From positions 320,301 to 384,300 of the forward strand of contig CAZTUJ010000001.1 of assembly GCA_964616855.1 (NCBI GenBank): a DNA stretch of 64,000 nucleotides, written 5' to 3'. Shown piece by piece: positions 5,392 to 61,804 of this stretch (the stretch's first letter is position 1; each line of letters opens with the position of its first letter). Made by a program: the position numbers and the translations under genes. The stretch is from an uncultured Gammaproteobacteria bacterium. GTDB taxonomy: Bacteria; Patescibacteriota; Patescibacteriia; Patescibacteriales; UBA12465. Below the pieces are notes generated by a model. That model was not told the origin of the DNA, made no database searches, and saw nothing but the letters and a program-made list of their open reading frames with translations.

Positions 5392-6012
5392 ATGGAAACA
5401 AGCATGTCAATGTTAGACGACAGCATTTTGGTCGATTTGTACCGAAATGGAAATTTAGAGGCATTTGGCGTTGTTGTTGAACGTTATAGCCATTATGTCT
5501 TTAAAGTAGCCTACTCAATCTTGCAGGATATTCCTTTGTCAGAGGATGCTGTTCAAGATACTTTTATCAAGGCCATGATTGGTCTTCAGTCTGGTAATTA
5601 TCAAGAGAATGGAACGGTAAAATCGTGGTTAGTACAGATAGCCCATAATATCTGTATCGACTATACGCGGAAGTTAAAAAGAATTCCTATCGATTTTTCG
5701 ATTTCCAGCACAGAACCTTTTAGCCAAACTATCGCTTCTTCTCCTTTTACCACTAGCCGCCCTTTAAATCCAGAAGAGATTTTGATCAATAAAGAAGAAG
5801 GGGATAACCTTGAGATTTCGAGCGAAGAAATGTTCTCTCTTGTTAGCAAGCTTCCTGATGTACAGAAAGAAGTAATAATGTTGCGTTTTTTCCATGACTT
5901 TTCTTTTCAGGAAGTCGCGGAATATCAAGATGTCTCCATTAATACCGCCTTAGGCAGGATGAGGTACGCTTTAATTAATCTCCGCAAGAAAATAGAGGAG
6001 ACGGAGGGGTAG
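5392..6012 (+). CDS. RNA polymerase sigma factor, ECF (sigma-24) family
   Basis: Region 2 (AFGVVVERYSHYVFKVAYSIL, DAVQDTFIKA) and region 4 HTH (QKEVIMLRFFHDFSFQEVAEYQDVSINTALGRMRYAL). Confidence 0.85.
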   Translation: METSMSMLDDSILVDLYRNGNLEAFGVVVERYSHYVFKVAYSILQDIPLSEDAVQDTFIKAMIGLQSGNYQENGTVKSWLVQIAHNICIDYTRKLKRIPIDFSISSTEPFSQTIASSPFTTSRPLNPEEILINKEEGDNLEISSEEMFSLVSKLPDVQKEVIMLRFFHDFSFQEVAEYQDVSINTALGRMRYALINLRKKIEETEG

Positions 6013-43406: not shown

Positions 43407-43436
43407 AATATACGGGAATTACGCCAAATTGTTACA
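43407..43436 (-). promoter_or_regulatory. ECF-type promoter TGTAAC-N16-CGTATATT
   Basis: Minus strand: TGTAAC at 43436-43431, exactly 16 nt of spacer, CGTATATT at 43414-43407. Confidence 0.55.
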
Positions 43437-49202: not shown

Positions 49203-49230
49203 TTTAAGTCTAGAAAAATATAGACTTAAA
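49203..49230. promoter_or_regulatory. Palindromic operator copy 1 (TAAGTCTA-N8-TAGACTTA core)
   Basis: TTTAAGTCTA-GAAAAATA-TAGACTTAAA with perfect 10-bp arms, 11 nt upstream of the HTH gene start. Confidence 0.6.
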
Positions 49231-49263: not shown

Positions 49264-49293
49264 TTTTAAGTCTATTACATAATAGACTTAAAA
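49264..49293. promoter_or_regulatory. Palindromic operator copy 2
   Basis: TTTTAAGTCTATT-ACAT-AATAGACTTAAAA with perfect 13-bp arms and the same core and core spacing as copy 1. Confidence 0.6.
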
Positions 49294-49338: not shown

Positions 49339-49572
49339 GAGCCAGGCTTAGACGAGATGAAGAAGAGAAGTGACGATTAGGCTTGAAAGCCGTCTATTAA
49401 TTAGCCGCTATAAATAGTGCCACAAGAAGATAAAGGGGACCTCTAGCGTATTAAAAAAAGGGGATAAATTATAAATCTTCTAATTTGCTTTTTTAAGCCT
49501 TTATGCTAGAATAAGAAGGTAAAATTTTGCTTTTAATAGAGAGGGCTTTGTCCCTTATTTTTGATTATTATC

Positions 49573-50160
49573 ATGACCGCTAATCTGGTTAAAAAATTCA
49601 AAGAGAAGCAATTACTGCAACAGCTCAAGAGTCACGACAAAGAAGCTTTTATCAAGGTCTACGATGAGTATGTCCAAGATATCTACCGCTTCGTGTATTT
49701 TAAGGTAGGTAAAGAAGAGGAATCGCAAGACCTTACTTCCATGATTTTTCTCAAGGCTTGGAACTATATCCAGGCCAACTCTTTAAGCGACAGTAAAACT
49801 CTGCGGGCTTTAGTCTATAAGATTGCCCGGACTTCCATTATTGATCACTATCGCGAAAGCAGTAGTAAGCTGGAAATTTCTTTAGATGATGAAAATCATC
49901 CGGTGGAAATAATCGATGACAAGCAAGACTTGGCTAAGGACTTAGACCAAGCGGCTGATCTGGCTTTAATTCGCAAGCAATTACCTTTATTAAAAGAAGA
50001 GTATCGTGAAGTCATTGTTTTGCGTTTTGTTAATGATTTGAGTCTGGAAGAAATTGCGGCGGTAACCGGTAAGAGCCGAGGTAATATCCGCGTCATCTTA
50101 CACCGGGCCTTAGCGGCCTTAAAAGAGATGGTAGAAGAAGAGGCGAAAGGGAAGAAGTAA
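49573..50160 (+). CDS. RNA polymerase sigma factor, ECF/sigma-70 group 4 family
   Basis: ATG at 49573. Region 2 (EAFIKVYDEYVQDIYRFVYFKV) and region 4 (REVIVLRFVNDLSLEEIAAVTGKSRGNIRVILHRAL). Confidence 0.85.
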   Translation: MTANLVKKFKEKQLLQQLKSHDKEAFIKVYDEYVQDIYRFVYFKVGKEEESQDLTSMIFLKAWNYIQANSLSDSKTLRALVYKIARTSIIDHYRESSSKLEISLDDENHPVEIIDDKQDLAKDLDQAADLALIRKQLPLLKEEYREVIVLRFVNDLSLEEIAAVTGKSRGNIRVILHRALAALKEMVEEEAKGKK

Positions 50161-50183
50161 ATATTAATAATATTTTAGATATA

Positions 50184-50214
50184 AAATAAGCACCCCTAGG
50201 GGTGCTTATTTGTT
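50184..50214 (+). terminator. Intrinsic terminator after the sigma gene
   Basis: AATAAGCACCCC-TA-GGGGTGCTTATT palindromic hairpin followed by TTG/T-rich sequence. Confidence 0.7.
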
Positions 50215-50338
50215 GATAATCATTTCGGGATTAGACAGCCTTGACTATTATATTTTGGCATTTATTTTTTAGCCGTCAAATTGAAAAAGGTATAAATTAA
50301 TCAGTAATTATTATTGTATAAATAAGCTAAAATTCAAT

Positions 50339-50364
50339 ATAAGTCTAGATATACCTAGACTTAT
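50339..50364. promoter_or_regulatory. Palindromic operator copy 3
   Basis: ATAAGTCTAG-ATATAC-CTAGACTTAT with the same TAAGTCTA-N8-TAGACTTA core. Its centre is about 70 nt upstream of the ECF-type -35 element at 50419. Confidence 0.55.
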
Positions 50365-50418
50365 CTCTAAAAAATTAAATAAAGTGTAATAAAGACGGGC
50401 TATTTATGGCTTAAGTAC

Positions 50419-50448
50419 TGTAACAATTCGGACCTTTCTCCGTATATT
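50419..50448 (+). promoter_or_regulatory. ECF-type promoter TGTAAC-N16-CGTATATT
   Basis: TGTAAC at 50419-50424, a 16-nt spacer, CGTATATT at 50441-50448. The ORF's ATG is at 50456. Confidence 0.55.
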
Positions 50449-50455
50449 ATGGCGT

Positions 50456-51247
50456 ATGACTGACCACAACTTTATCAAACAATTAAAAGGACTGAAAACA
50501 ATGAACCCGGAAGCTGCTTGGTTAAAGAGCAACCGGGAGATTTTGTTATCCCAAATCGCCAACTCTGGCGCTAAGGAATTGTCTAACTGGCGGCGCTTAG
50601 TTATTGACTTGCGCAGCTTTACTCAGACTCTTTCCCAGCCCGCCTTGGCCTTAGGTTCACTCCTTCTGCTTTTCATTGGCGCTAGCGTCTTCGGACACTT
50701 AGCCTTTAACCGAACCAAGCCGAATGAATCCTTATATATCGCTCGTATCATTTCCGAGAAGGCTAAATTGAATACTATCTTTGATTCTCAAGAAAGAGAA
50801 AAGTTGGAAGCGCAGTTTGCTGCTAATCACGCTGAAGCTATCACCGAAATTTTAGCTGAGACCGTTATCGACGAATCCAATCAAGATCAGGTAGCGATGT
50901 TGAATGAAAAGTTTAACCATGAAGTTGATACCATGCGTGCTAAGATTGCCGCTACGAAACCGGCCCCTACTCCAGCTGAAACCGTTGCCACTCCGACCCC
51001 TAGCTCTGAAGAAGATTTAGTGGTTGCCGGCAATGGTAAGGAAGAAGATGGTTTGCAGTTAGAAATTAAAGATGATGGCAATGACGCTGTCGTTACCGCT
51101 ACTAATACCACGGAAGTTAAGCTTGAAGTCAGCCCCGTGAGCAAGGCTCCGGAAGAAATTTTAGAAGAAGCGAAAACTTTGTTTGATAATAAAGAGTACG
51201 ATAGCGCTTTGGATAAGCTTAAAGAAGTGAAGGAGCTGATTAAATAA
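50456..51247 (+). CDS. Single-pass membrane protein next to the ECF sigma (DUF5667-like / possible anti-sigma partner)
   Basis: 263-aa ORF with one TM segment (ALALGSLLLLFIGASVFGHLAF), a helical extracytoplasmic part and a T/P/E-rich tail. No HxxxCxxC zinc anti-sigma motif. The family call is from memory only. Confidence 0.6.
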   Translation: MTDHNFIKQLKGLKTMNPEAAWLKSNREILLSQIANSGAKELSNWRRLVIDLRSFTQTLSQPALALGSLLLLFIGASVFGHLAFNRTKPNESLYIARIISEKAKLNTIFDSQEREKLEAQFAANHAEAITEILAETVIDESNQDQVAMLNEKFNHEVDTMRAKIAATKPAPTPAETVATPTPSSEEDLVVAGNGKEEDGLQLEIKDDGNDAVVTATNTTEVKLEVSPVSKAPEEILEEAKTLFDNKEYDSALDKLKEVKELIK

Positions 51248-51886
51248 TCAGCCCTTTGGTCCGGTCGCCCGTATTTATTAGTTTGTCTCTGCAGTCGATG
51301 CCTTTTTAGAAGATCAGATTCCTGCATTCTTCCGATCTGGATTGTACTCGGAGATAAATTAATAAATCCCGGCGAACTCCGACGGCCGTGGATTTATCTA
51401 CAACCGCCGGAATAGCCCGGATAGCGGACCTAGTCAAGGTCGAATCCCATTAAGGGGAGGGTTACGCTCATTATAAATTAGAATGTTCTCCGGATAGATT
51501 TCCTTTGTTTCTGTACTGAAGGTGCTTCCAAGTTTTTTCTTGGGAGGGGCTAAGTCTGCAGGCGGACGAAAGGGAAAGTTCCCGTAGATTGATTAAGCTT
51601 TTCTCCAGCCTCGGCTAACACGCTTTGCCGGCTGGCAGTTCTTAATCGTTTTGTCAGTCCTTAAAAAGCTTGCTTCAACCGATGTGTTGGTGGAGCGGGA
51701 TTCCGATCAATCTATAAAATACTTTCCTCTTAAGTCTGAAAGCGGCGGTGCTCTCCTCAAATTAAAACCGAGCGGCACCCGTAAGAGCAGGACAGAAGAA
51801 TCCACTTGGAGAACTGAACCTCATCATTTATCAACTTGTTCTCACTACTATTGTGCGGACAGCTGTGAATGATTTAATTATTACTT
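51248..51886 (+). ncRNA. Candidate large structured RNA or long 5' UTR of the S-layer-like gene (unclassified)
   Basis: About 640 nt with no credible ORF in any frame, yet 42-57% G+C per 60-nt line (hand count). Multiple local helices, for example AGATAAAT/ATTTATCT, CCAGCC/GGCTGG, CTTCCAAG/CTTGGGAG. Confidence 0.35.
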
Positions 51887-54800
51887 ATGAAAAAATTACG
51901 CAAATTCTTAACCGTCAGCGTAATGGTATTATCTATCATCGCCATGAGCGGCTTGACTGTGAACACAGCCAGCGCTGCTGCCCAGGCCGGTGATTTGATT
52001 AAGATGGATGGCTTGTCCTCTGTCTACTACCTTGGCAATGATGGTAAGAGATATGTTTTCCCGAGCGAATCCGTGTACTTCTCTTGGTATCAGGATTTCA
52101 GCAGCGTGGTAACCATCCCCGCTTCTGAATTGCAGTCCTATCCTTTAGGCTCCAATGTGACCATGAGACCGGGCACCAAGCTCGTGAAGATTACTACTGA
52201 TCCTTCCGTTTACGCTGTTACTCCTAATGGCGTTTTACGCAAGATCGCTAGCGAATCCGATGCAATCACCCTCTATGGCACCAATTGGGCTAAGATGGTT
52301 GTTGACGTCGCTGACGCTTTCTTCACCAACTACACTGTTGGCACTCCTTTAACTTCTGGCACTTACCCTGCTGGTACTTTGTTAAAGAATGCTAACAATG
52401 CTAGCGTTTACTACTTTGACGGCACCAACTATCGCATGATTGCGAGCGAAGCTGCTTTCAATGCCAATCGTTTCTCCTTCAGCAACGTGATCACCACCGG
52501 CATGACTTTGTCTGCTTCTGGTAACAGCGTTACTGCTAAAGAAGATATTTCCAGCCCGACTGGTGGCGTTGGTACTGTAATCACTGGCTCCGGTTTAACC
52601 GTAGCTTTGTCTGCGGCTACCCCGGCTTCCATGAACATCCCGACCGGCTCCCCGGCTAACTTCTTTGCTTTTAATTTAACCGCTGCCAATGATGGCGCTG
52701 TTAACGTTTCTAGCTTGAAGTTAACTGCTTATGAATTGGGTACTGCTGCTAACATTGATGACGTTACCATTTTTGATAACGGCGTTAAGGTTGGTACCTC
52801 TAAGAATATCAATTCTGACAAGGAAGCAGTTTTTGCTTTTGCTAACCCGATTTATGTAGCTGCTGGTACCACCAAGACTTTAACCGTCAAGGCTACCACT
52901 GCCGCTGCTGGTGACTATGCTTTAGGTATTGCCAAGGCTGCTGATATCACTGCCACCGCTGCTACCGTTTCCGGTTCATTCCCGGTTCGCGGTAATAAGA
53001 TGTCTGCTGTTGTCTCTAGCAATGTTGGTACTTTAGCAATGAGCTCTGTTGATACTACTGATTCCACCGTTGATTTCGGTGAGGATGACGTGTTATTAGC
53101 TAGCTTCAATTTAACTGCTAACAATGAAGATGCCTTAGTTACCTCCATGAAGTTCAAGAATGGCAGCACCAATGTTGACGGTATCATCTCCAATTTGAAG
53201 ATGTTAATCGACGGCACTGAAGTTGCTTCTGGTACTTATGCTGATAGCTATGCTACTTTCTCTTTGAATAACTTCAAGGTAGAAAAGGGTGATTCTGTTA
53301 CCGTGGAAGTCCGCGGCGACATGGGCACCACCAATGTCGGCGACAAGGTGACCCTTTACTTAAAGGATCGTGCTGATATCGCTGCCATCGGTGCAACTTA
53401 TGGCTATGATTTACAGTTAGATACTACCAGCTTCCAGAGACTCGACACCGTTACCGAAGGTATGACTTTGACTTTAGCTGCTAGCGACTTCACCCTCGAT
53501 GCTGATAAGGCTGCTACTCCGGCTAAGGATATCAAGGCTGGCGACAATGACGTTGTCTTAGCTACCATCAAGATGAAATCCAATGGCGAAAATGCCACTT
53601 TGGAAGAAATCACTGGTGCTGGCAACTTCACCATCGTTGGTACTGCTTTATTAGTTGACGAAGTGAAGAATGTCCGCATGATTGATGTCACTTCTGGCGC
53701 TACTTATGATTTAGATGCTACTTTCAGCACTGATCATTATGAATTGACTTTGTCTGATGAAATCTCCTTCACTAAGGGTGTGACCAAGACTTTCGTAGTT
53801 AAAGCTGACATCGACGATCTCGCCGATGCTAACGATACCTTGAAAGTTCACTTAGAAGCCGACGGCATGAAAGTGACCGGCGATGTTTCTAACTCTTCTA
53901 TCACTGATATTACCCCGAGCCAAATCGATGGTTCTATCATGACCGTGAAGGATGCTTCTTTATCTTGGAACGTCACCAACTTAACCGCTAAGACTGTGGT
54001 TACTGGTGCTTCTAACATTGAAGTTTATCAGGCTAAATTGAAGGCGGGTGCGGCTGATGGCGTGAAACTTAACTCTTTGAAGTTAAGCACCACTGCTAAC
54101 AACGCTACCAATTTCACCGACAACAACATCACCAAGCTTGACCTTTATATTAATGGTCAGTTAGTGAAGTCTGTTTCCAATAACATTGTTGAAGCTGTTA
54201 ACGGAGTTTCTGTTGGTACTATTACCTTCAATTCTTTATCCAGCAACACCATCAATGCTAACCAGGAAGTTGACTTAGTAGTGAAAGCTACTTTCTCTTC
54301 CAGCTTCTCCGGTGCTAATACCTTTGCTTTACAGGTCGCTCAGGAAGCCGATATCAATGCGAAATCTGTGACCGGTAACAAGGTTGTTGACATCACTGGT
54401 GGTATCACTGGTGGTGCTCGCACCATCACCTTGGCTACTATGGGTACTTTGAAGGTTGAATTATTAACCTCCGATACCAATGCTAGCCAGGATCAGTACG
54501 TTTTGGCCGGTGCTACTTCTGCTTCCAAATATTTGGGCGAATTGAAGTTCACCACCGCCAATGAGCCGGTTAAGGTCAAGACTTTGACTTTGACTTCTCT
54601 TGCCAACGACACCAGCTCTGACATTAAAGAAGTTAGATTGGTGAAGGCTGACGGCACTGTTGTTGCTTCTAAGACTGTTGAAGCTGACGGCGATGTAGTA
54701 TTTGACACCTTCGATGTTACTTTCGATGCTGACAAATCTACCTCTCTCTTCATTTCTACCTTAGCTAGAGGTATTAATGTTGACGGCGATGCCACTGCTA

Positions 54801-55459
54801 CTGCTACCCAGGGTCATGCTATTCAGTATAACCTCGGTGCAGGTGCGGCTATCACTGCTGAAGGTGTCAACTCTGGTGAAGCTATCACTATGATTGCCAA
54901 TGATAATGGTACTTTAATTGCCGGCGAATGGGATGATGACAGCTCTACTAAGACTCACACCATCACTGCCGTTAAGTTAAACTCCGTTGTTAACGCGATG
55001 ACCAATGGCACCTTATCTTCTGGTCGCCAGGATATCGCTAAGTACACTTTGACCTTCGAACATGGTAACAACCGCGATGCTAACAATGATGCTTACAAGG
55101 CTCAGTTAGATTATCTCGCTTTAACCATTAACCAGAGCGGTGCTACAACCACCAATTTGACCTTGAAGGTTGACGGTACTACCCGCGAAGTTGCGGATTC
55201 TGCCTCTGCTGGCGTCTGGACTTCTACGGAATTACAGCATGTCACCACTGGTCTCTTGAATCTTGCTAAGGTTGATGACGTTGTGACTTTAGTTGTTTCT
55301 GCTGATATCGCTATCGATACTCAGGCCAACAACTACAGCGTTCAGACCGTTATCAGCGACTTAAATGGCGCTGGTGGTAACGATTCTATCCGCCACAACA
55401 GCTTGACGAACATGTACTTACCGTACACCTCCGTCACTGGTGCGAACTTGACCAACTAA
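51887..55459 (+). CDS. Large secreted surface (S-layer-like) protein
   Basis: Sec signal peptide (LSIIAMSGLTVNTASAAAQA). Thr/Val/Ala/Asn-rich, Cys-free. Three short N-terminal SVYY...G..R.I.SE repeats, then 6-7 divergent beta-rich modules of about 115-125 aa. Codon usage is visibly biased. Confidence 0.75.
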   Translation: MKKLRKFLTVSVMVLSIIAMSGLTVNTASAAAQAGDLIKMDGLSSVYYLGNDGKRYVFPSESVYFSWYQDFSSVVTIPASELQSYPLGSNVTMRPGTKLVKITTDPSVYAVTPNGVLRKIASESDAITLYGTNWAKMVVDVADAFFTNYTVGTPLTSGTYPAGTLLKNANNASVYYFDGTNYRMIASEAAFNANRFSFSNVITTGMTLSASGNSVTAKEDISSPTGGVGTVITGSGLTVALSAATPASMNIPTGSPANFFAFNLTAANDGAVNVSSLKLTAYELGTAANIDDVTIFDNGVKVGTSKNINSDKEAVFAFANPIYVAAGTTKTLTVKATTAAAGDYALGIAKAADITATAATVSGSFPVRGNKMSAVVSSNVGTLAMSSVDTTDSTVDFGEDDVLLASFNLTANNEDALVTSMKFKNGSTNVDGIISNLKMLIDGTEVASGTYADSYATFSLNNFKVEKGDSVTVEVRGDMGTTNVGDKVTLYLKDRADIAAIGATYGYDLQLDTTSFQRLDTVTEGMTLTLAASDFTLDADKAATPAKDIKAGDNDVVLATIKMKSNGENATLEEITGAGNFTIVGTALLVDEVKNVRMIDVTSGATYDLDATFSTDHYELTLSDEISFTKGVTKTFVVKADIDDLADANDTLKVHLEADGMKVTGDVSNSSITDITPSQIDGSIMTVKDASLSWNVTNLTAKTVVTGASNIEVYQAKLKAGAADGVKLNSLKLSTTANNATNFTDNNITKLDLYINGQLVKSVSNNIVEAVNGVSVGTITFNSLSSNTINANQEVDLVVKATFSSSFSGANTFALQVAQEADINAKSVTGNKVVDITGGITGGARTITLATMGTLKVELLTSDTNASQDQYVLAGATSASKYLGELKFTTANEPVKVKTLTLTSLANDTSSDIKEVRLVKADGTVVASKTVEADGDVVFDTFDVTFDADKSTSLFISTLARGINVDGDATATATQGHAIQYNLGAGAAITAEGVNSGEAITMIANDNGTLIAGEWDDDSSTKTHTITAVKLNSVVNAMTNGTLSSGRQDIAKYTLTFEHGNNRDANNDAYKAQLDYLALTINQSGATTTNLTLKVDGTTREVADSASAGVWTSTELQHVTTGLLNLAKVDDVVTLVVSADIAIDTQANNYSVQTVISDLNGAGGNDSIRHNSLTNMYLPYTSVTGANLTN

Positions 55460-61427: not shown

Positions 61428-61804
61428 TGTTAATCGGGGCAAGTAAGCGGCCGCTTTTTTGCGCTATATGGCGTTAAAAAGAGGAAAGTCCGGACTTCTT
61501 AAAAAAGGCAGCGGGTAATGCCCGCCAAGAGTAATCTTAGGGAAAGTGCCACAGAGACGATACTATTTTATTCTTCGGAATAGAAGAAAGGTGAAAAGTT
61601 GCCTGGTACCCTTCGGGGTTACAGGCTTCGGCCGCCGGTAACGGCGTGTTCGCGGTAAACCCTGCCTGAAGCAAGAGCAAAGCCTGATAGAACGCTTGCG
61701 TTTTATTTGGTAAAAAGTAGCTCGCTTGACCTGACCGGCAACGGTTAGGCTAGATAAATGGCCGCTCCCGACAGAATCCGGCTTATCGCTTGCCCCTCTT
61801 AACC
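61428..61804 (+). ncRNA. rnpB: RNase P RNA, bacterial type A (ends +/- 10 nt)
   Basis: Universal P4 strands GAGGAAAGTCCGGAC (61481-61495) and ACAGAATCCGGCTTATCG (about 61771-61788). GGGTAATGCCCGCC and GGGAAAGTGCCACAGA blocks. P1 pairing GGGGCAAG/CTTGCCCC. Confidence 0.9.

Follow-up and report, generated by a model that had tools for sequence, protein, structure and literature searches.

A conserved extracytoplasmic function (ECF)-type promoter motif between a sigma factor gene and a putative anti-sigma gene in Patescibacteria

The DNA analysed here is a 64-kb stretch, referred to as the window, from a bacterium of the Patescibacteria that is Falkowbacteria-like and belongs to a little-studied group. 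At one locus in the window, a gene for an ECF sigma factor is followed by a gene for a membrane protein that weakly resembles the DUF5667 family, and a motif of the ECF promoter type lies between the two. The gene order around them is conserved and consists of HU, HTH_17 (on the opposite strand), the sigma gene, the DUF5667-like gene, a long spacer, and a gene for a large secreted protein. Judged from its sequence and conservation, the motif is very probably a real promoter that is read by the neighbouring ECF sigma factor. The features of the locus that bear on this are as follows, with positions given in nucleotides (nt) of the window.

49485-49512, plus strand: housekeeping promoter of the sigma gene, TTGCTT-N16-TAGAAT with an extended -10 element (TGnTAGAAT), kept in almost all close relatives
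49541-49563, plus strand: conserved terminator-like hairpin and T-run in the leader of the sigma mRNA, 10 nt before the ATG
49573-50160, plus strand: gene for the ECF sigma factor presumed to read the motif, identified by Pfam and NCBIfam profiles and by matches in the PDB
50188-50215, plus strand: intrinsic-terminator-like hairpin downstream of the sigma gene, flanked by an A-run and, on the opposite side, a T-run (RNAfold)
50340-50363, no strand assigned: operator-like palindrome TAAGTCTA-N8-TAGACTTA, the third copy, 76 nt upstream of the -35 element, found in 9 loci
50419-50424, plus strand: -35 element TGTAAC, which 46 of 48 close relatives carry at the orthologous position
50441-50449, plus strand: -10 region CGTATATTA (consensus CGTATAYTA), in which TAYTA forms motif positions 27-31
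50454-50456, plus strand: transcription start predicted from the sequence, with the A of ATG 50456 as +1 and T50455 as -1
50456-51247, plus strand: gene for a DUF5667-like single-pass membrane protein of 263 amino acids (aa), a putative anti-sigma factor on the basis of a weak DUF5667 match and synteny

The comparisons draw on 63 loci encoding relatives of the sigma factor, found in a search of one genome per species. Nearly all of these are metagenome-assembled genomes of Patescibacteria or Candidatus Falkowbacteria. The 48 nearest loci, with sigma proteins 56–96% identical to that of the window, are termed the close relatives.

In the window, the -35 element and the -10 region are separated by a 16-nt spacer (50425-50440). 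The 8-mer CGTATATT at 50441-50448 is followed by 7 nt and then by the ATG of the open reading frame (ORF) at 50456. A first-pass annotation of this DNA had reported the motif at three sites with identical 16-nt spacing, and an exact pattern search of the window found the same. TGTAAC-N16-CGTAT has exactly three matches in 64 kb, at 50419-50445 (plus strand), 43436-43410 (minus strand), and 45520-45494 (minus strand). It had also proposed that a genome-wide frequency no higher than chance, with no bias towards positions upstream of genes, would count against the motif. In the 64-kb window the three matches exceed chance, as the mean over 100 dinucleotide-preserving shuffles was 0.01 matches and no shuffle reached three. 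When a position weight matrix was derived from 58 relative sites, the same three sites alone scored ≥12 bits in the window, at 36.3, 31.9, and 21.3, and only one of 10 shuffled windows gave any match, at 17 bits. The matrix found no additional site in the window, including upstream of the surface-protein gene and of a second sigma gene described below. All three window sites and the 58 sites in relatives carry the combination that characterises ECF promoters, an AAC-containing -35 element and a CGT-containing -10 element ~16–17 nt apart. Around the motif and in the three leaders, Rfam searches at gathering and permissive thresholds gave only terminator-like, sub-threshold matches and none of relevance. 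A short ORF at 50449 (ATGGCGTATGA) was set aside as trivial.

Of the 48 close relatives, 46 have the exact sequence TGTAAC-N16-CGTA in the interval separating the sigma gene from the DUF5667-like gene, and the two remaining loci end before the motif position. The search pattern fixed TGTAAC and CGTA, and conservation was counted at the remaining positions. Across the relatives the consensus reads AAC-TGTAAC-R-TTTT-N11-CGTATAYTA. Conserved although left free by the pattern are the preceding AAC, an R followed by TTTT (8–11), TAYTA (27–31), G34, a purine at 36, T37, and A38. Four of the five TAYTA positions are invariant in the 46 orthologous sites, T37 is also invariant, and position 38 is A in 43 of the 46. 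The upstream flank and the spacer are little conserved, at about 0.1–0.4 bits per position. The window differs from this consensus in part. Its triplet before TGTAAC is TAC rather than the conserved AAC, and the tract beside the -35 element reads AATTC, AATTT, and AAAAT at its three sites, whereas the relatives have T at positions 8–11 in 35–39 of 46 cases.

These features agree with those described for ECF promoters elsewhere. In B. subtilis, ECF promoters with AACnTTTT and a CGTA -10 element have been described, the T-tract being one of their features (PMC5758882), and a pyrimidine-purine step at -1/+1 is enriched at ECF start sites (PMC7776599). The motif of the window and its relatives corresponds in CGTA and in T37 followed by a purine, and that of the relatives also in AACnTTTT. 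The original reading of the element as an ECF-type promoter is upheld by AAC and CGT blocks with a 16-nt spacing that is kept in orthologous loci, as well as by conserved positions that were not part of the search.

In 23 of the 46 close relatives (L013, L017, and L019-L023 among them), the stop codon of the sigma gene is the TAA within the -35 TGTAAC. The 32-nt gap between sigma stop and ATG in these 23 loci is promoter throughout. In the distant loci L049, L051, L053, L055, and L056, with sigma proteins 44–49% identical to that of the window, TGTAAC-N16-CGT[A/C] occurs directly upstream of the sigma gene. In distant L050 the motif is found between the sigma and DUF genes, and distant L052 and L054 have no motif site. 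The placement of the motif upstream of the sigma gene in distant relatives ties it to this sigma family.

The sigma gene at 49573-50160 encodes a protein of 195 aa that matches Pfam Sigma70_r2, r4, and r4_2 with no r3. It scores 87.2 bits against NCBIfam TIGR02937, for which the cut-off is 42.9, and belongs to the ECF sigma factors by this measure. Its top family model is NCBIfam TIGR02952 (BldN), at 115.8 bits and below the cut-off of 206.45. The alignment to TIGR02952 begins at residue 14, and the protein is without the long N-terminal extension that forms the BldN pro-sequence. The best solved structures are BldN (6dxo_A) first and SigW (5wuq_A) second (E = 1e-14). A second ECF-like sigma gene was found at 5392-6012, which agrees with the count of two ECF sigma factors made at the outset. 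We infer from synteny which of the two reads the motif.

Neither the window nor the 46 close relatives carry the ECF motif upstream of the sigma gene, which has a sigma-70 type promoter instead. ECF groups without autoregulation are known (PMC7826278), so membership is not excluded by the missing motif. For comparison, the HU gene promoter in the window is canonical (TTGGCA-17-TATAAT, marked as TG-preceded). The conserved hairpin at 49541-49563 in the sigma leader may be an attenuator of sigma synthesis.

The distance from the motif to the downstream gene is largely fixed. In the window, as in 35 of 46 relatives, the ATG of the DUF5667-like gene stands at motif position 38, which is 37 nt past the motif start, and the peptide beginning at ATG 50456 (MTDxxLIxKLxxLK...) is conserved in relatives. 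Mapped ECF promoters of B. subtilis have their T-tract at -30 to -26 (PMC5758882). Applied to the present motif, this geometry places +1 at position 38, which is the A of the ATG. From the fixed distance and the B. subtilis geometry, we infer that the DUF5667-like mRNA is leaderless or near-leaderless and starts at 50456. Shine-Dalgarno-like sequences precede only ~4 of 64 long ORFs in the window, and the upstream regions are mostly AT-rich. As such sequences are rare in this genome, the argument for a leaderless mRNA rests on the fixed distance and not on an absent Shine-Dalgarno sequence. Leaderless mRNAs are common in Actinobacteria, Deinococcus, and archaea. The present gene would resemble them in that the promoter distance places the predicted start on the A of the ATG, with no Shine-Dalgarno sequence.

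The first-pass annotation had noted the 7 nt between the -10 element and ATG 50456, and an AAGGA ahead of a further ATG at 50501. Both are present in the sequence, the AAGGA being 9 nt upstream of ATG 50501. It had left the choice between a leaderless mRNA and the second ATG undecided. The position of the first ATG and the conservation of the peptide that follows it favour the former. ATG 50501 was rejected as the true start, as its Met is not conserved and the orthologues mostly have Ile. Public gene calls for the nearest relatives (P0001, P0002, P0004, and P0005) cover 94% of the protein, begin at a downstream Met, and miss the conserved start.

The match of the window protein to DUF5667 (PF18915) is weak, at 21 bits against a cut-off of 27, and weak matches are also seen in 12 of 13 orthologues. 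Some homologues have a precomputed PF18915 assignment, and all public homologues are annotated as hypothetical. The gene adjoins the sigma gene in all relatives. In an AlphaFold2 model from 46 sequences (predicted local distance difference test, pLDDT, 63), three N-terminal helices lead into a transmembrane helix, followed by an ectodomain of three helices, a linker that is disordered, and a helical hairpin at the C-terminus. With respect to class I or zinc-binding anti-sigma domains, which have four helices and often an HxxxCxxC motif, the protein has no anti-sigma Pfam match, no zinc-binding motif was seen, and there is no Cys in residues 1–60. The literature consulted does not mention DUF5667 and does not cover ECF sigma factors of Parcubacteria or Patescibacteria. 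Judged only by topology and invariable synteny, the DUF5667-like protein is most likely an anti-sigma factor.

The best explanation of the locus as a whole, to which we assign a probability of about 0.8, is a negative-feedback circuit in which 50419-50449 is an ECF promoter read by the upstream sigma factor and expresses a leaderless putative anti-sigma gene. RNA polymerase with the ECF sigma factor from 49573-50160 would recognise 50419-50449, and transcription would start at, or at most 2 nt from, the A of ATG 50456. The single-pass DUF5667-like protein would be made from this leaderless mRNA, and would most likely be the cognate anti-sigma factor. The sigma gene would be transcribed from its own housekeeping-type promoter with no autoregulation. 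The active sigma factor would then switch on its own inhibitor, giving negative feedback, and would also switch on at least two further units, encoding a 51-aa membrane protein and a major facilitator superfamily (MFS) transporter. The same transcript probably extends through a structured RNA of ~600 nt and on into a gene that encodes a large secreted surface protein.

Several observations weigh against this explanation. The window site at 50419 itself is without the T-tract (AATTC after AAC-A). Instead of a leaderless ATG, 11 relatives have leaders of 12–28 nt without a Shine-Dalgarno sequence. The second ECF-like sigma factor in the window (5392-6012) is a possible alternative reader, and the -10 region is also sigma-70-like, with GTAACA-17-TATATT scoring 9/12 in a consensus scan, so the housekeeping polymerase could use it. 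On the side of the partner, the DUF model is of moderate confidence only, as its pLDDT indicates. A Foldseek search of the model against the PDB gave nothing below E = 0.5, and a profile of the N-terminal half found no match among PDB sequences, so neither search revealed a likeness to a solved anti-sigma factor in fold or in sequence. The lack of a Foldseek match and the moderate pLDDT make the predicted fold uninformative on function. Lastly, the comparison covered ~12 kb around the sigma gene in each relative, which skews the view of the regulon towards nearby genes, and remote members would be missed.

The sigma-70 likeness raises the prospect that the motif is a housekeeping-sigma promoter with an unusual -35 element (GTAACA-N17-TATAYT), conserved merely for driving the DUF5667-like gene. 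All three sites are 9/12 matches to the sigma-70 pattern in the consensus scan, TATAYT is a good -10 hexamer, and a start at the ATG would place it at -13 to -8, near the canonical position. However, the true housekeeping promoters of the same loci have TTGnnn and TGnTAnnAT. TGTAAC is present in all 58 close-relative sites with no TTG variant, a count in which near-universal occupancy is what matters given that the pattern fixed TGTAAC and CGTA. AACnTTTT and CGT are features of ECF promoters (PMC5758882), and in distant relatives the motif lies upstream of the ECF sigma gene itself. A housekeeping promoter is hence an improbable account of the motif.

There is similarly little to be said for an ECF-type promoter that is read by the sigma factor from 5392-6012, alone or jointly with the other. 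The window does contain two ECF-type sigma genes, and overlapping promoter recognition among the ECF sigma factors of B. subtilis is documented (PMC5758882). Set against this, the motif and the 49573-type sigma gene are physically linked in over 50 genomes, in 23 of which the motif overlaps the stop codon of that gene, it precedes this type of sigma gene in distant relatives, and there is no motif near the 5392 gene. That the motif is instead a transcription-factor site, for example for the syntenic HTH_17 protein, or a recombination site at an insertion hotspot can be largely dismissed: a conserved HTH_17 gene does adjoin the sigma gene and several relatives have varied inserted gene cassettes immediately upstream of the motif, but the motif halves are unrelated in sequence, being no palindrome and no direct repeat, a separate operator candidate in the locus is clearly palindromic (TTAAGTCTA-N8-TAGACTTAA), the exact distance from motif to start codon is maintained, the motif stands in sense orientation upstream of three different genes, and the insertion point of the cassettes is the terminator hairpin and not the motif.

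For the circuit of an ECF promoter read by the upstream sigma factor, the closest known wiring at the level of sequence is that of BldN and RsbN in Streptomyces. There, rsbN lies directly downstream of bldN and has a promoter of its own that BldN targets directly, and bldN has separate transcription. RsbN spans the membrane once and carries an anti-sigma domain of three helices, and the BldN regulon encodes surface sheath proteins (PMC6101532). The likeness begins with the sigma factor, for which TIGR02952 and 6dxo_A are the top model and structure. It extends at the sequence level to a downstream (here putative) anti-sigma gene with its own sigma-target promoter and to a separate sigma promoter, with a terminator hairpin between the genes in the present case. 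Both systems also have a single-pass membrane partner with a short three-helix N-terminal domain, predicted here, and a regulon with cell-surface proteins, which is likewise predicted here. The BldN sigma gene is under another regulator.

The differences from BldN/RsbN are also substantial. BldN, which is ECF121 in the Casas-Pastor classification, has an N-terminal extension that is processed from a pro-protein (PMC7826278), whereas the window sigma factor has no pro-sequence and reaches 115.8 bits against the cut-off of 206.45. The DUF5667-like protein has no detectable sequence or fold likeness to RsbN, and the host is a Patescibacterium, not an actinomycete. The leaderless anti-sigma mRNA, which is predicted, and the overlap of the -35 element with the sigma stop codon belong to the Patescibacteria loci. 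Given the score below the cut-off, the missing pro-sequence, and a partner unlike RsbN, sequence comparison does not support membership in the BldN family or ECF121.

The promoter itself is closest in form to those of B. subtilis sigma-W and sigma-X as well as sigma-V (tGAAACnTTTt-N-CGTA/CGTC; PMC5758882). These share the AAC in the -35 element, the T-tract one base past AAC that the relatives show, the CGTA -10 element, and the 16 nt between AAC and CGT, and among solved structures SigW (5wuq_A) ranks second for the sigma factor. They differ in having TGAAAC in place of TGTAAC, and in the present motif conservation of the -10 region extends to CGTATAYTA. The B. subtilis promoters also autoregulate co-transcribed sigma/anti-sigma operons, whereas here the sigma gene has no motif upstream. 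The same distinction holds for the classical autoregulated operons, such as E. coli rpoE-rseA and B. subtilis sigW-rsiW. The present locus resembles these in that the sigma gene adjoins a membrane anti-sigma candidate, and in that the motif stands upstream of the sigma gene in the five distant loci L049, L051, L053, L055, and L056. In the window and the 46 close relatives, however, the ECF promoter lies between the two genes and the sigma gene is preceded by a housekeeping-type promoter, and neither a class I anti-sigma domain nor a zinc-binding motif turned up in the membrane protein.

This comparison shows an ECF promoter that shifted during evolution from a position ahead of the sigma gene to one between it and the putative anti-sigma gene. 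Such a move would change the circuit from combined positive and negative feedback to negative feedback only. The pair would be a new, uncharacterised ECF sigma factor and promoter from a poorly studied phylum and a fairly ordinary type of bacterial switch, with the compact leaderless design and the relocated promoter as its unusual features. From experiments, almost nothing is known of how Patescibacteria control transcription, and the locus offers a concrete, testable pairing of sigma factor and promoter. The pair could be tried directly in E. coli for use as an orthogonal expression part, with no need to culture its host. The predicted regulon is small, comprising the anti-sigma candidate, the small membrane protein, the MFS transporter, and possibly the main surface protein. 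The analysis also provides a corrected start codon for the DUF5667-like gene.

The junction between the sigma and DUF5667-like genes varies among relatives. The first-pass annotation had described the two genes as separate transcription units and had called this arrangement unusual. The terminator hairpin is present, consisting of AAGCACCCCTAGGGGTGCTT (50188-50207) followed by ATTTGTTG, with a 10-base pair (bp) stem by RNAfold and only terminator-like sub-threshold Rfam matches at 50159-50217. Separate units are plausible for this lineage. The junction of the window (50161-50418) is a 258-nt gap of 26% GC with a terminator, whereas most relatives have no gap at all and 23 have the sigma stop inside the -35 element. 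By this comparison, the terminator and the 258-nt gap are a derived state of the window's clade. Separate promoters are indeed seen here, but the arrangement is not unprecedented, as BldN/RsbN is wired in this way (PMC6101532).

The junction is also an insertion hotspot, at which relatives carry Fic, DUF3800-like, AbiE-like, NYN-like, and HigBA-like cassettes. In L001 (3834-5200), a 1.1-kb Fic cassette is present at the junction and the terminator hairpin is duplicated on both sides of it.

The palindrome TTAAGTCTA-N8-TAGACTTAA lies 76–77 nt upstream of the ECF motif in 9 loci of the window's clade, the window included. Two further copies, at 49205-49228 and 49267-49290, are separated by 62 bp and stand on either side of the HTH_17 gene's start in nearly all loci. 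The palindrome is a candidate site for the HTH_17 protein, and its sharing suggests a second regulator that would act on both promoters.

Beyond the junction, the other two ECF-type sites and the region downstream of the DUF5667-like gene contain the following features.

43410-43436, minus strand: second ECF-type site, followed by a ~250-nt leader and an MFS transporter gene (43154-41976), kept in L003 and L005
45494-45520, minus strand: third ECF-type site, followed by a ~160-nt leader and a gene for a 51-aa membrane protein (45321-45166), kept in 9–10 relatives
51263-51870, plus strand: conserved structured RNA between the DUF5667-like and surface-protein genes, with compensatory changes
51887-55459, plus strand: gene for a 1190-aa secreted protein of unknown family ('S-layer-like'), syntenic in all relatives including distant ones

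The small ECF regulon that had been sketched from these sites gains support from the relatives, in which the 45520 site with the small membrane protein is kept in 9–10 loci and the 43436 site with the MFS gene in two. The leader of the 51-aa gene (45483-45322, minus strand) contains hairpins conserved in ~10 relatives, and a terminator follows the gene at 45160-45135. The MFS leader (43400-43155, minus strand) ends in a conserved strong intrinsic terminator at 43224-43189. This leader is a riboswitch or attenuator candidate with no Rfam match.

The 1190-aa protein has no Pfam or NCBIfam match, and its N-terminus, read directly, looks like a signal peptide. The spacer between the DUF gene and the surface-protein gene is 420–680 nt in nearly all relatives and 640 nt in the window. 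As had been observed earlier, no terminator is visible after 51247; none was found up to 51887, and the same interval yielded no conserved sigma-70 promoter. The absence of both between the genes makes it plausible that the DUF5667-like and surface-protein genes are co-transcribed from the ECF promoter.

Most of this spacer is taken up by the structured RNA. Compensatory changes affect 22 of 106 predicted pairs among 12 close loci, and 10 of the 21 pairs in the closing helix of the 5' domain among 31 loci. A core block, GCGGGATTCCGA, lies ~65 nt before the surface-protein gene and is kept even in the distant loci L049 and L056. The RNA has no match in Rfam 15. A tentative and rather doubtful extension of the circuit is that the ECF promoter, the leaderless anti-sigma gene, the ~600-nt RNA, and the 1190-aa gene form one sigma-dependent transcription unit, in which the RNA would be a new structured class that sets the ratio of surface protein to anti-sigma factor. 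If so, the RNA would act through RNA processing, stabilisation, or signal sensing. The leaderless design would mean that the anti-sigma factor is made efficiently only from sigma-dependent transcripts, and the whole would give a bacterium of the candidate phyla radiation a sigma circuit devoted to its cell surface.

The large structured RNA is the most unusual item near the locus, and compensatory base-pair changes in it are seen across about 40 genomes. No tRNA genes were found in the window, which does contain an RNase P RNA at 61435-61801.

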